IMG/VR virus record: IMGVR_UViG_3300010153_000003
Coordinates: 1,075 to 65,074 of that record
Reading direction: 5' to 3' (one strand)
Length of the DNA: 64,000 nucleotides
Origin: a virus
Lineage: Duplodnaviria > Caudoviricetes
The notes beneath the pieces were generated by a model that did not search any database, was not told where the DNA came from, and saw nothing but the letters and a program-made list of their open reading frames with translations. Positions 38,392-52,933 of the stretch are shown here, piece by piece. A program made the translations under genes and the position numbers. Position 1 is the stretch's first letter. The number at the start of each line of letters is the position of its first letter.

Positions 38392-38937
38392 AATCGTAAT
38401 AAAAAGTACAGGTGGTTAGCCTGTGAAACTAAATTCGTCAGCTTGTTCTTTGGACAAACCGAACTTCTTAGCGAATAATTTGACACGCTTCATGAATCGT
38501 AGATTATTTCTCTCTCTACTATTAGTTGCGTCTTTCCATCTTCGCCATGTTCTTTTCTTGTCAGATCTAGGTAACTTAACACCTGTTTCTAAATCTATTC
38601 TTCTTGACATAATCATAAATTGTTAGATGACGTATCTACGTTCTTTCTAACAGTAATGAAGCACTTTGGTTGTAGTTGCTCATCTACCATAGTCTTTCCA
38701 TCTCAGAACAAAACAAATCAGTTTGTATCTGTTCGTCATCAATATCTTTTTGGAATCTTTCAATCATCTCGTAATCTTCGTGTATTTGAGGGGATTCTAT
38801 TACATCTAGACTTGTACTATTTAGAGCCTCATAGGTTTTTGTATCACAAGTATTACAAAAGTAGATATTGAATCTGTCGTCGTTATCGGTCGATATATAT
38901 CTAATCCTATGATCCTTCCCATTTGGACATTCGATCG

Positions 38938-48793: not shown

Positions 48794-49579
48794 TTGTTGC
48801 GCAACAAACTCTTATTTTCTTTAATTACTATTGTTATATTAATCGGTGGTGTTAATATTATACCTGCTGATGGTGATAGATTAGAGACTCTTAAACTTAG
48901 GCATAGTGAGGCCCCCGAGGTCTGTATGTTTGAACCTAATCCAGAGTTAGAAGCGGATAGAAAGTATAATTTTGAAGTAATAACCAGGGTATCGGTTGAT
49001 ATGTGGGTAGACGCATTGTCATACAAGTACCCTCAAGGCAATTGGGAGATAAAGATACATCCTACCGTGCCATGGGAAGAACATGTAAATGCAGATCGTT
49101 ATGATTATCCTCATTGTAATATCATGATTTTATTTGAACCGATATCAGACGGCAACAGACTAGGCTATGCAGTCCCTGACTTTTCAAAGTCTTCACACAA
49201 ACATATGATTGTAGTCGTTCACACATATGAGACAGTTCCTAACAGTATAACTTTCAATCAAGACGGAACTACAACAAGGGACCTAAAACCAATGTCATTA
49301 ACTGTTATACAGGCAATATTGCAACATGAATTAGGCCATGCGTTCGGACTATTACATTACAACATATCAAATCCGTTAAGTCAAAATGAATTTGGAACAG
49401 ATCGTTCAATGATGTATCCTGCTTTGAACAGTGAATCTGGTCTTATTCATATACAAGAACCTGAACTAATAATGATGGCAAAGATATATGGTGAAGACGG
49501 ATGGGGTGGCCAAACACCTGTCTTGATGCCAAAACAATGTGACTTTATACATAACATACTCGTAAAATGTGATTGGTAG
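48794..49579 (+). CDS. Secreted or membrane-anchored matrixin-like metzincin protease
   Basis: N-terminal hydrophobic signal; HELGHAFGLLH (HExxHxxGxxH); Met-turn SMMYP. Confidence 0.85.
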   Translation: MLRNKLLFSLITIVILIGGVNIIPADGDRLETLKLRHSEAPEVCMFEPNPELEADRKYNFEVITRVSVDMWVDALSYKYPQGNWEIKIHPTVPWEEHVNADRYDYPHCNIMILFEPISDGNRLGYAVPDFSKSSHKHMIVVVHTYETVPNSITFNQDGTTTRDLKPMSLTVIQAILQHELGHAFGLLHYNISNPLSQNEFGTDRSMMYPALNSESGLIHIQEPELIMMAKIYGEDGWGGQTPVLMPKQCDFIHNILVKCDW

Positions 49580-49614: not shown

Positions 49615-49716
49615 ATGGGTTGCGGATGCGGAGATTCATGCGAACTAAACACTGACGGTTTGTTTACTGTGAAGAAGACCAAAAAGAAAGAAGAAAAACT
49701 TAAAGACACGATATAA
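49615..49716 (+). CDS. 33-aa MGCGCG microprotein (not in ORF track)
   Basis: MGCGCGDSCELNTDGLFTVKKTKKKEEKLKDTI; TTTAAATA box at about 49585. Confidence 0.5.
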   Translation: MGCGCGDSCELNTDGLFTVKKTKKKEEKLKDTI

Positions 49717-50378: not shown

Positions 50379-50424
50379 TAACATTTAACATTATCTTTAT
50401 ATATCATTTATTAATATATAGTAT

Positions 50425-50535
50425 ATGCAAAATGATCAATGTGTAACTAAAGAAATTAATTCTTGTGATTGTGATAACTGTGATTGTACAGATCACAAAA
50501 ATTGTGAATGTGACGACTGTCAATGTTGTTGCTAA
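50425..50535 (+). CDS. Metallothionein-like 36-aa peptide (not in ORF track)
   Basis: MQNDQCVTKEINSCDCDNCDCTDHKNCECDDCQCCC, 11 Cys, no aromatic residues; TTTATATA box about 25 nt upstream. Confidence 0.7.
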   Translation: MQNDQCVTKEINSCDCDNCDCTDHKNCECDDCQCCC

Positions 50536-50570
50536 TCAGATAAGTTTATATTAGATGTTAGCCTATATAG

Positions 50571-50678
50571 GGGTGGCTGTCAGGGAATACCACCATGAGC
50601 GCGCAACGGGTATGGGTTGACGGTAACCCTCTTAAGCCACAAGACTAGAAAGAACGTCGATACGTCATCTAGTCAACC
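50571..50678 (+). ncRNA. Candidate structured non-coding RNA of unknown family
   Basis: GTGGCT/AGCCAC closing stem, internal ATACC/GGTAT and GGGTT/AACCC stems, 3' GACTAGA/TCTAGTC hairpin; starts about 25 nt after the TATA at 50545. Confidence 0.5.
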
Positions 50679-50730
50679 AAAAATTTTCCAAAAAAAACAA
50701 AAATTTTCGCAAAAATAAAAAAATTTTCCG
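50679..50730. repeat. Phased A-tract repeat (AAAAATTTTC x3, 20-bp period)
   Basis: Copies at 50679, 50699 and 50719 with further A-runs between them. Confidence 0.8.
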
Positions 50731-50764
50731 CATACTTTAAATAAGCGAACAGACACTAATATAT

Positions 50765-52933
50765 ATGGGCTTTAAAGATAGGTTTACCAATGCATATAAA
50801 GCTTTAACGTCAGTTGACAAGGGATATACAGAAACTACGTCTAGACCAGCCATCATGCAGCCATATATGGCAACCGATACAGGAGCAAAACTACCAATTT
50901 TCCCTTTCCCACTTATAATGATCTACGAATTATCTGATAACGTGGATGCTTTGAGGATTTCTATTGAAACAATCAACAGAGAGATGTTTAAAAACGGTTT
51001 CGAGGTAGTTGAAAAGTACAAATACAAGTGTAATAACTGTGGAAAAGAGTTTGACGGCAAACCATCAGCAACTGATGCCTTTGATCGAAAGGAAGGTGCT
51101 CCATCAGACCCTGATACAGACAAGGCACCTGCTAGTCATGCTTCAAAAATACTAAAAAAAGCCTCAGTACCAGGCCCAAAAGAAGATGATTCACCACCAC
51201 AATGTGATGAATGTTTTTCTGAAGATATTTCTCGTCCAAAACCAGAAAATCGTAAAATTTTACAGAAACTTTTTACAGATTTTGTCAATAATAACGACCA
51301 AACCATGGAAGATGTCGGCAGAATGATCGAAAGAGACCTGGAAGTCGCTGATAATGCCTATTTATTACTATTAAAGAACTATTACATTAATGATACTACT
51401 GGTAAGATTGATCCAATGAAGACTAAGATTAAAGAATTGATAAGAATAGATCCTCCCCAAGTTGCAATCATCGCAGATTCAGACGGCAGAGTAGGTTTTG
51501 ACGATAAAAGAAACGCTGTGTATGTTTGTCCACGATTTGAACATAGAGATAAAAGGCTCTCCAAACCACACTGTGATAGGTGCGGTGCGGAAGCATTAAA
51601 AGCACTGTTAGAAGTTTCATCAGTGTATTCTGTAGGAGTACCTCAACCAAAAAGAGTAATTTATGCACAAGGAGAGGTTATTTGGGTTGCAGGAAAATAT
51701 AAACCAGGATTAATTTACGGATTTTCACCAATTTATGCTTTATGGAGTAAAGTAATGTCATTATCTCATATGGATGAGTATATTAGAAAATACTTTGACA
51801 AAATGCGACCACCAAGAGGACTTTTGGTCATCGCATCAAGAAACTATGAGACTTTTAGAAAATCATGGAGTACTTTGGAGCAAAGAGCAACTGAAGATCC
51901 TTATATGGTACATCCTTTGTTGGTAGAATCAGATAAAGGCGGAAGACAGATGGCACAGTGGATTGATTTCACGGGGTCACTAAAAGAATTACAATTTATA
52001 GATATTAGAAGAGAGTTAAGACAGATTATAGGTGCAGCATATGGAGTATTGCCATTATACTTTGGAGAACTTCCATCAGGATGGGCTAACGAAGGCATGC
52101 AAGTAACTATTACTAACAGACATATCAAATGGTCACAAGATTTCTTAAAAACACATATATTTGACAGGTTGGCAAAAGAATTACAAGTAACTGATTGGAG
52201 TTTAAAACTTAGAGAAGGTGAAGAAGCAGATCAACTCAGAGATCTCGAAATAGAAGCACAAGAGATTCAGAACAACGCAACATTACAACAAATGGGATTC
52301 GATGTTAAGAGAACACACACAGGAGAATGGGTTGTTGGAAAAGAACCAACGTTTGAACAAGTCATGTTGCCTGAAATGGTTGCACAAGAACAAGCAGCAG
52401 AACTTGGAATGTTACCACAACAAGCAGAGCCTGGTGGACAGAAGCAAGGAAGAGGAAACTCTACAACAGGTAACGGTGAACGAACTGCAGGTTCCAAACA
52501 AGGAGGTCCTATGAACAAGCGCCCAAGTGATCCTGGCGGTCAAGGACAAGGCAGTCCAACAGCAGGAGGAAAGCAAAGATCCGGAGCATTCAACGCATCA
52601 CAGAAATCCATAGGACACACAGAAGATTTTTGGGTTAGGAAAATAACAAAAGAGACTGACCTATCAGTAGATGAAGCTAGAAATATCGTAAAGACATGGG
52701 AGAAGGAATACAAAAAATCCGGAACCATTTATTTCCCAACAACAGTTGAAGAGGATGAATTATCACCAGGATTAGCAGAAACAGTACAAAGAAAAAAGAA
52801 ATCAGGCAAAACAAAATACATAATGAGACAGGAAGGAATGCCAGATATGAGTCCTAGAATAGAAGAAGAAGTGAAAAAAACATTTGATGATGAATTAGGG
52901 GACGAAGAAGAGACATCAGATACTGATGTATGA
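50765..52933 (+). CDS. Portal protein with zinc-ribbon insertions
   Basis: DLEVADNAY, RIDP, YGFSPI, YF....PPRGLL, LQF...R...I..AYGV.P; CNNC/CDEC and CP..EH/CDRC insertions. Confidence 0.9.
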   Translation: MGFKDRFTNAYKALTSVDKGYTETTSRPAIMQPYMATDTGAKLPIFPFPLIMIYELSDNVDALRISIETINREMFKNGFEVVEKYKYKCNNCGKEFDGKPSATDAFDRKEGAPSDPDTDKAPASHASKILKKASVPGPKEDDSPPQCDECFSEDISRPKPENRKILQKLFTDFVNNNDQTMEDVGRMIERDLEVADNAYLLLLKNYYINDTTGKIDPMKTKIKELIRIDPPQVAIIADSDGRVGFDDKRNAVYVCPRFEHRDKRLSKPHCDRCGAEALKALLEVSSVYSVGVPQPKRVIYAQGEVIWVAGKYKPGLIYGFSPIYALWSKVMSLSHMDEYIRKYFDKMRPPRGLLVIASRNYETFRKSWSTLEQRATEDPYMVHPLLVESDKGGRQMAQWIDFTGSLKELQFIDIRRELRQIIGAAYGVLPLYFGELPSGWANEGMQVTITNRHIKWSQDFLKTHIFDRLAKELQVTDWSLKLREGEEADQLRDLEIEAQEIQNNATLQQMGFDVKRTHTGEWVVGKEPTFEQVMLPEMVAQEQAAELGMLPQQAEPGGQKQGRGNSTTGNGERTAGSKQGGPMNKRPSDPGGQGQGSPTAGGKQRSGAFNASQKSIGHTEDFWVRKITKETDLSVDEARNIVKTWEKEYKKSGTIYFPTTVEEDELSPGLAETVQRKKKSGKTKYIMRQEGMPDMSPRIEEEVKKTFDDELGDEEETSDTDV

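Follow-up and report, generated by a model that had tools for sequence, protein, structure and literature searches.

Metallothioneins are delimited operationally by a low mass (under about 10 kDa), a Cys content of roughly 15-33%, few or no aromatic residues and the arrangement of their Cys as CxC, CxxC or CC. In the mammalian alpha domain, four divalent ions are bound by 11 Cys. The cyanobacterial SmtA opens with a CxCxxCxC block, holds its Zn4 cluster by His as well as Cys and has a zinc-finger-like fold with aromatic residues; both SmtA and the plant Ec proteins have His ligands and favour Zn. Plant metallothioneins comprise two Cys domains with a long spacer between them that contains aromatic residues. 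The Zn3Cys9-type (CXC or pre-SET) domains of eukaryotic chromatin proteins hold a fixed multinuclear Zn cluster that serves for macromolecular contacts. At the level of motifs, CXCXXCXC is given as a building block of the Tetrahymena Cd-metallothioneins in the excerpted text of PMC1808422 and of plant type-2 metallothioneins in Table 1 of PMC3677015, and the papers that contain the literal string CXCXXCXC deal for the most part, according to their titles, with metallothioneins or metal-binding proteins. As for viruses, metallothioneins are named in a passage of one paper among the candidate auxiliary metabolic genes of fumarole viruses, and archaeal tailed viruses are treated in PMC8651126. 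A preliminary description of the DNA studied here had proposed a virus-encoded, metallothionein-like peptide and had stated that no characterised example from an archaeal virus was known; our search of the literature turned up none either. Neither the peptide family nor the structured RNA presented below was found described in the literature outside subscription-only papers (for instance, one of 2019 on marine Thaumarchaeota Caudovirales).

The window, that is, the whole stretch of 64,000 nucleotides that was analysed, corresponds to bases 1075-65074 of a 65,074-bp IMG/VR record rated 100% complete by CheckV. It has a G+C content of 36% and encodes, among others, a large terminase, a tail tube protein, an MCM helicase, RadA, CobS/CobT-like proteins and a 2OG-Fe(II) oxygenase. 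This is a marine tailed virus of the archaeal type; among named viruses, its closest relatives are tailed viruses of haloarchaea, with 22-24% identity in the portal protein. The protein-coding features of the locus and their promoter elements are:

48794..49579, plus strand: M10-like Zn protease (261 aa); its N-terminus is hydrophobic and it carries an HExxHxxGxxH-type motif (Peptidase_M10, E 7e-4, below the Pfam cut-off)
49615..49716, plus strand: second conserved mini-ORF, of 33 aa, with MGCxC...C, DG-[LMV]-F and a Lys-rich tail; a TTTAAATA box lies 22 nt upstream
50396..50403, plus strand: TATA box TTTATATA of the peptide gene in leaderless geometry, conserved in relatives
50425..50535, plus strand: Cys-rich peptide gene, 36 aa plus stop, with orthologues at the equivalent site upstream of the portal gene in related viruses
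50464..50532, plus strand: core domain of the peptide as defined by the family alignment, residues 14-36, CxCxxCxCxxHxxCxCxxCxCCC (10 Cys and one His)
50736..50743, plus strand: portal-gene TATA box TTTAAATA, 21 nt upstream of the start codon (ATG)
50765..52933, plus strand: portal protein gene (phrog_18178, E 2.2e-36; Phage_portal, E 8.3e-09, below the Pfam cut-off)

The product of 50425..50535, MQNDQCVTKEINSCDCDNCDCTDHKNCECDDCQCCC, contains 11 Cys among its 36 residues (30.6%), in CxC, CxxC and CCC arrangements, together with 7 Asp, 2 Glu, 1 His and no Phe, Trp or Tyr, in exact agreement with the Asp-rich, aromatic-free peptide first described. It is the most Cys-rich of the 714 six-frame ORFs of at least 25 aa in the window, and a span of 23 of its codons encodes 10 Cys versus a maximum of 6-8 in 100 Markov-1 simulations. 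Composition alone is nevertheless not decisive as to whether the ORF is a gene, because another real, out-of-frame stretch of the window reaches 9. The DNA is also rich in TGTGAT, and low-complexity DNA yields many false matches to the codon pattern of the core, as might be expected if the ORF were no gene but a by-product of a TGT/GAT-rich repeat or of a protein-binding array. That the frame is open in all relatives speaks against such a by-product only weakly: stops number 5-10 in one forward frame of the core and usually 1 in one antisense frame, but the other three alternative frames have zero stops in most rows of the alignment, so that openness of the frame is not discriminating by itself.

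The decisive evidence comes from conservation. Loci were collected by means of the portal gene (the best 80 of 410 relatives), and 24 of them (L001-L024), with a portal identity of at least 72%, make up a close group, in which L014, L019 and L023 have no upstream sequence. A small Cys-rich ORF is found upstream of the portal gene and on the same strand in all 21 informative loci of this group, at a distance of mostly 250-450 nt, and the synteny around it is preserved in the group. The canonical core CxCxxCxCxxHxxCxCxxCxC is present in 20 of the 21, the exception being L016 with a core variant that lacks the His. It is present as well in three of 56 more distant loci (L025, L027 and L037, from a group with 56-63% portal identity); three others (L058, L060 and L061) have a doubtful 7-Cys variant, and the filters used rendered no core candidate in the remainder of these 56. 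Among 18 distinct core DNAs, the codons of 8 Cys and one His vary only synonymously (TGT/TGC, CAT/CAC), an invariance that is partly circular since the alignment rows were picked by a regular expression requiring those residues, although a looser pattern without the His requirement recovered the same loci. The pN/pS ratio of the same DNAs is 0.24 over all 21 codons and 0.46 over the twelve spacer codons. The ORF is thus a genuine gene under purifying selection, and the conservation among relatives on which the proposal had been made to depend does exist. With synonymous-only change in the ligand codons, this pN/pS ratio and a conserved leaderless promoter, a spurious ORF is largely refuted, and we regard its origin from a repeat or a protein-binding array as very improbable.

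Regarding the promoter, TTTATATA ends 21 nt before the ATG, so that the claim of a separate promoter, with a canonical box at leaderless spacing, holds and extends to the relatives: the box and its flanks, a[ta]cTTTATATAt[ca]att, are kept at approximately equal distance in L001, L003, L005, L010, L011 and L037. Of the 62 window ORFs examined, 9 have a TTTAWAWA box whose end lies 17-26 nt from the start codon on its upstream side, with a background density in the window of 0.45 TTTAWAWA sites per kb and strand. The portal (21 nt) and tail tube (25 nt) genes belong to this spacing class, and the promoter geometry of the peptide gene is therefore that of undoubted genes. The peptide gene was also correctly placed upstream of the head genes, as it lies directly 5' of the portal gene, from which it is separated by 229 nt, in an order kept in the close relatives. 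On its other side, the M10-like protease gene is found upstream of the peptide gene in most close relatives and downstream of the portal gene in L012-L014. The mini-ORF at 49615..49716 has relatives in L015 (3040), L017 (744), L020 (2710) and L024 (2675), as well as in L021 and L022; by resemblance, it looks like the N-terminal module of a long-form paralogue of the peptide.

The 26 aligned members of the family range from 26 to 97 aa, with 13-34% Cys, and can be divided into two types. The short forms (26-36 aa), which include the window peptide, consist of barely more than the core. In the long forms (54-97 aa), a C-x-C-x(3-5)-C-x-x-H knuckle at the N-terminus and a linker rich in Lys are added to the core. 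The core has 10 Cys and one His in 23 members, 9 Cys and one His in two, and 10 Cys and two His in one, and this number of ligands is held constant even with an altered C-terminal spacing (23 of 26 members). It contains 5-11 Asp or Glu versus 0-5 Lys or Arg. In size and Cys content, the window peptide and its relatives thus have the properties by which metallothioneins are delimited, and so they do in motifs, since the core is accompanied by a terminal CxC or CC. Aromatic residues are absent from the window peptide and from the other 8 short forms, and number 1-6 in the long forms, mostly within the N-terminal extension.

Composition and motifs therefore justify the term metallothionein-like that had been applied to the peptide, but membership of a described family does not follow from them. 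The window peptide matched no Pfam family at E<=10, and none of Metallothio, Metallothio_Pro, Metallothio_2, Metallothio_5 and Metallothio_Euk was matched at its gathering threshold; the best lead to a metallothionein was Metallothio_Euk, with E 0.98 in 2 of 19 members, below that threshold. No PHROG matched the peptide, and a profile of 19 sequences gave no match to PDB sequences at E<=10. In the ESM Atlas, the leads were all below threshold, with unnamed clusters at the top (score 0.85) and a metallothionein cluster at rank 17 (0.78). As far as its sequence allows us to judge, the peptide belongs to no known metallothionein family.

The reading that we prefer, and to which we would give about an even chance, is that the peptide is of the thionein type and, within infected cells, holds metal or passes it on. 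Its mRNA would be leaderless and transcribed from the peptide's own archaeal TATA promoter. Since 11 ligands are crowded into 23-26 residues and a hydrophobic core is lacking, folding would hardly be possible except around metal, and the tiny acidic peptide may accordingly fold only around a metal-thiolate cluster, in which 10 Cys and one His would hold about four divalent ions. The invariant His makes Zn the most likely metal, several Cu(I) ions being the alternative; the His and the total of 11 ligands would be no less compatible with Zn than with Cu. The peptide would have the chemistry of a metallothionein domain, and metal holding or handover would be its most likely role. Models obtained with AlphaFold2 and the family alignment were of low confidence and uninformative, with a pLDDT of 59.9 (window peptide) and 57.3 (a long form); their virtual lack of secondary structure would fit an apo-thionein and constitutes weak evidence.

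Two more specific roles had been suggested, one linked to copper and the other consisting in the supply of Zn fingers or the protection of Cys-rich virion proteins. Among the 59 other proteins of the window, Pfam searches (E<=0.001 or 0.01) identified no cupredoxin, metal transporter or radical-SAM enzyme. Paired CxxC...CxxC motifs occur in 6 of the 60 larger window ORFs and the portal protein has three CxxC, which lends modest support to the existence of many Zn fingers; the mean Cys content of those 60 ORFs is 1.5%, which does not fit Cys-rich virion proteins. A copper-specific role and a supply of Zn fingers are speculation, and so is the protection of virion proteins. The same searches bear on the possibility that the short, Cys-rich peptide is the precursor of a ribosomally synthesised and modified peptide (RiPP), for instance of the radical-SAM thioether type: no radical-SAM or other maturase was found among those 59 proteins and a leader/core architecture is not evident, so that we attach hardly any weight to it.

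Two other uses of so many Cys may be considered. In the first, Cys, and possibly Asp and Glu, would be the ligands of an iron-sulfur or other redox-active centre, as might be suggested by the high Cys content, by the conserved carboxylates and by the presence of other metal enzymes in the virus (the 2OG-Fe(II) oxygenase and the CobS/CobT-like proteins). However, no Fe-S family of Pfam was matched at E<=10, CxC and CxxC blocks spaced this tightly are not known as Fe-S motifs, and we hold such a centre to be improbable. In the second, the peptide would bind no metal and would be a disulfide-rich extracellular or virion peptide (a toxin, a halocin-like peptide or a decoration peptide). Small Cys-rich peptides can indeed be disulfide knots, and in P0007, a relative from a metagenome, the N-terminal stretch is by eye hydrophobic and might be a signal or an anchor. 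The window peptide and most of its relatives have no signal sequence, however, and ten Cys in 23 residues with CxC blocks and an invariant His are atypical of disulfide folds, so that this alternative is equally unlikely.

The distribution of the family is narrow. Among 1.84 billion representative proteins, the family profile had 12 matches (E<=0.001) of 32-97 aa, all with the family signature and none of them a longer fused protein carrying the core, and a word-indexed search of 5.8 billion clusters (E<=0.01) rendered 15 proteins without any Pfam domain and whose sole source name was 'hypothetical protein'. When one genome for each of 185,579 prokaryote species was scanned with the exact codon pattern of the core, 66 stretches matched, and none of the 66 was family-like, all being, by eye, low-complexity poly-Cys/His/Arg frames. 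In IMG/VR, the pattern matched 30 stretches, corresponding to 23 family members and 7 low-complexity stretches; 22 of the members lie on contigs already known through the portal gene and one (L173) is new. Among the matches listed in a pattern scan of metagenomes, at least 3 were family-like versus 142 that were of low complexity or otherwise different. The forms of 26-36 aa are largely absent from protein databases, in which a single match of 32 aa was found, because they are too short for standard gene callers. In the data searched, therefore, the family is tiny, unannotated and seen only in virus and metagenome DNA.

The preliminary description had assumed an ammonia-oxidising archaeon as the host. 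The best matches of RadA point in that direction: in the class containing the Nitrososphaeraceae, the top match had 222 bits, identities were 38-41% and a match was present in 80 of 81 genomes, compared with a top match of 172 bits and 37% identity in the class containing the Poseidoniales. A portal homologue with 42% identity was found in one of 151 genomes of the former class and in none of 151 of the latter. This homologue (L296, in genome G072, contig C3:55146-59831; E 1.6e-123) adjoins a RadA-like gene, and the region represents a provirus or else a viral contig that was binned wrongly; the ORF upstream of the portal homologue encodes a Zn-ribbon-like protein of 37 aa and not a Cys-core peptide. 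On the other hand, the family profile matched none of 401 genomes of the Nitrososphaeria, the class containing the Nitrososphaeraceae record, at E<=0.01, under conditions in which the virus's own gene was recovered at E 3.6e-6. A thaumarchaeal host is thus plausible and weakly supported. The search for the pattern in viruses and hosts that had been recommended was, in turn, positive for related viruses and negative for those 401 genomes, from which it follows that the peptide gene is not a host-derived metabolic gene. A host-derived auxiliary metabolic gene was rejected on these grounds, with no homologue in the 401 genomes of the presumed host class and no family-like sequence among the 66 cellular matches to the pattern.

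Some of these observations do not sit easily with a thionein. There is no host homologue, and the gene was thus not borrowed from host metal homeostasis. The core is acidic and has conserved non-ligand positions (Asn5 in 15 of 18 core sequences, Asp7 in 15, Asp10 in 14, Asp18 in 14 and Glu20 in 17), which would set it apart from classical metallothioneins, as these are rich in Lys and Ser and more variable than the viral core. It is moreover fused to the CCCH knuckle and Lys-rich linker in L009, L010, L011, L016, P0002-P0006 and P0008, and in three loci the N-terminal module has an ORF of its own, which shares 8-14 nt with the beginning of the core ORF (L015:3521-3667, L017:1187-1354 and L024:3157-3342), an arrangement that could reflect gene fission, translational coupling or a frameshift. 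Such fusion or coupling, together with the hydrophobic N-terminus of one relative, is rare in plain buffers, and it argues for a modular domain more than for a buffer alone. Tandem Cys-core paralogues of 63 and 87 aa occur in L010 (919-1373) and L011 (3342-3796), the second beginning a few bases past the stop of the first.

It is possible therefore, if distinctly less probable than metal holding or handover, that the core is a structural module with a fixed Zn cluster, belonging to a small adaptor or regulator that contacts protein or nucleic acid and neither stores nor donates metal. The strict conservation of the spacing and of several non-ligand residues, the fusion or coupling to the knuckle and linker, the tandem paralogues and the restriction to viruses in the data searched would all be in keeping with such a module, as would its position beside the portal gene and a structured RNA (see below), which is fixed in the 21 informative close relatives. 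It should be noted, however, that no cluster domain of Pfam, the Tesmin/TSO1 CXC and pre-SET Zn-cluster domains included, was matched at E<=10, that the form present in the window is the acidic core alone, devoid of a basic part that could bind nucleic acid, and that the peptide is found without the RNA in L025, L027 and L037, so that a partnership with the RNA is not obligatory.

The RNA in question was missed in the preliminary description, as was the modular fusion of the core in relatives. It lies in the space between the peptide and portal genes, where, with a partial copy elsewhere in the window, the following features were recognised:

50542..50553, plus strand: putative BRE/TATA element AAGTTTATATTA for the structured RNA, conserved about 20-25 nt before it
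50572..50680, plus strand: candidate conserved structured RNA with two hairpins, with strong covariation in the aligned relatives and no Rfam family
50680..50729, plus strand: three AAAATTTTC(C/G) repeats with an exact period of 20 nt; A/T-run repeats are present in relatives as well
38615..38691, minus strand: second copy of the RNA's hairpin 2 (33.4 bits, E about 1e-5), with a 22-nt motif at 38626-38647

In an alignment of 15 loci, 18 of the 22 predicted pairs of the RNA show compensatory change, and 95.4% of the cells are paired versus 75.5% in shuffles, none of 500 of which reached the observed value, and versus 27-51% in controls with slid partners. A covariance model detected the RNA in 22 of the 24 loci of the close group, the other two having no upstream sequence. 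Rfam gave no match at the gathering score, and none at E<=10 for 50530-50770, and ARAGORN predicted no tRNA. The AAAATTTTC(C/G) repeats could be T-runs of an RNA terminator or a protein-binding array. The 22-nt motif of hairpin 2 occurs twice in the window versus not at all in 100 shuffles; its copy on the minus strand, identical apart from one free position, lies between two minus-strand ORFs that are a short distance apart. Hairpin 1 is found alone near the portal gene, on the opposite strand to it, in L028 (3350-3477) and L029 (1846-1961). No match to the RNA was found between the peptide and portal genes of L025, L027 and L037, and the positional link between peptide and RNA is therefore a property of the close group only. 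The corresponding space holds no RNA match in L025 (2373-2758), and in L037 (2306-2541) it appears by eye to encode a small, probably coiled-coil, ORF.

Wider scenarios can be drawn by analogy, and we consider them doubtful. The peptide, the structured RNA and the portal gene might constitute a cassette, in which the RNA would act in packaging in the manner of the phi29 pRNA, or in the control of head genes, with the peptide as its metal-dependent partner; alternatively, the peptide might seize the Zn/Cu economy of ammonia-oxidising archaea and in this way affect nitrification. In any case, a covarying RNA without an Rfam family directly before the portal gene represents an independent lead on the non-coding RNAs of archaeal tailed viruses.

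The peptides described here constitute a new, narrow, virus-only family that lies outside the known ones and whose sequences suggest a metallothionein-like chemistry. If they bind a metal cluster, this would be the first defined metallothionein-like family specific to archaeal viruses, and one that arose in viruses instead of being borrowed from a host. Zn and Cu are the metals that limit the presumed marine archaeal hosts, and the family would then make it possible to test how the viruses of such abundant archaea deal with Zn or Cu.

A comparison with the systems considered at the outset shows resemblance in chemistry and motifs without a match in sequence. The Tetrahymena Cd-metallothioneins are, like the viral core, small and very rich in Cys, and the C-terminal CXCXXCXCCK of subfamily 7a shares with it the CxCxxCxC block ending in a further Cys (PMC1808422, in the excerpted text). 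Their modules are, however, juxtaposed to Lys and repeated many times, whereas the viral core is acidic, single and provided with an invariant central His, and a Pfam search detected no sequence homology between the two. With the C-terminal Cys domain of plant type-2 metallothioneins, which reads CXCXXXCXCXXCXC or a variant of it, the viral peptide has in common an architecture of CxC and CxxC blocks and a comparable number of Cys per domain (PMC3677015, Table 1), and it matched none of the plant metallothionein families of Pfam. Nor did it match the cyanobacterial and bacterial SmtA/BmtA (Metallothio_Pro), in Pfam at E<=10 or among PDB sequences. The Zn3Cys9-type domains resemble it in their dense, CxC-containing Cys arrays and differ from it in spacing, in their larger size and in being eukaryotic, with no Pfam match to the viral peptide. 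In number of ligands, finally, the viral core, with its 10 Cys and one His, equals the 11 Cys of the mammalian alpha domain.
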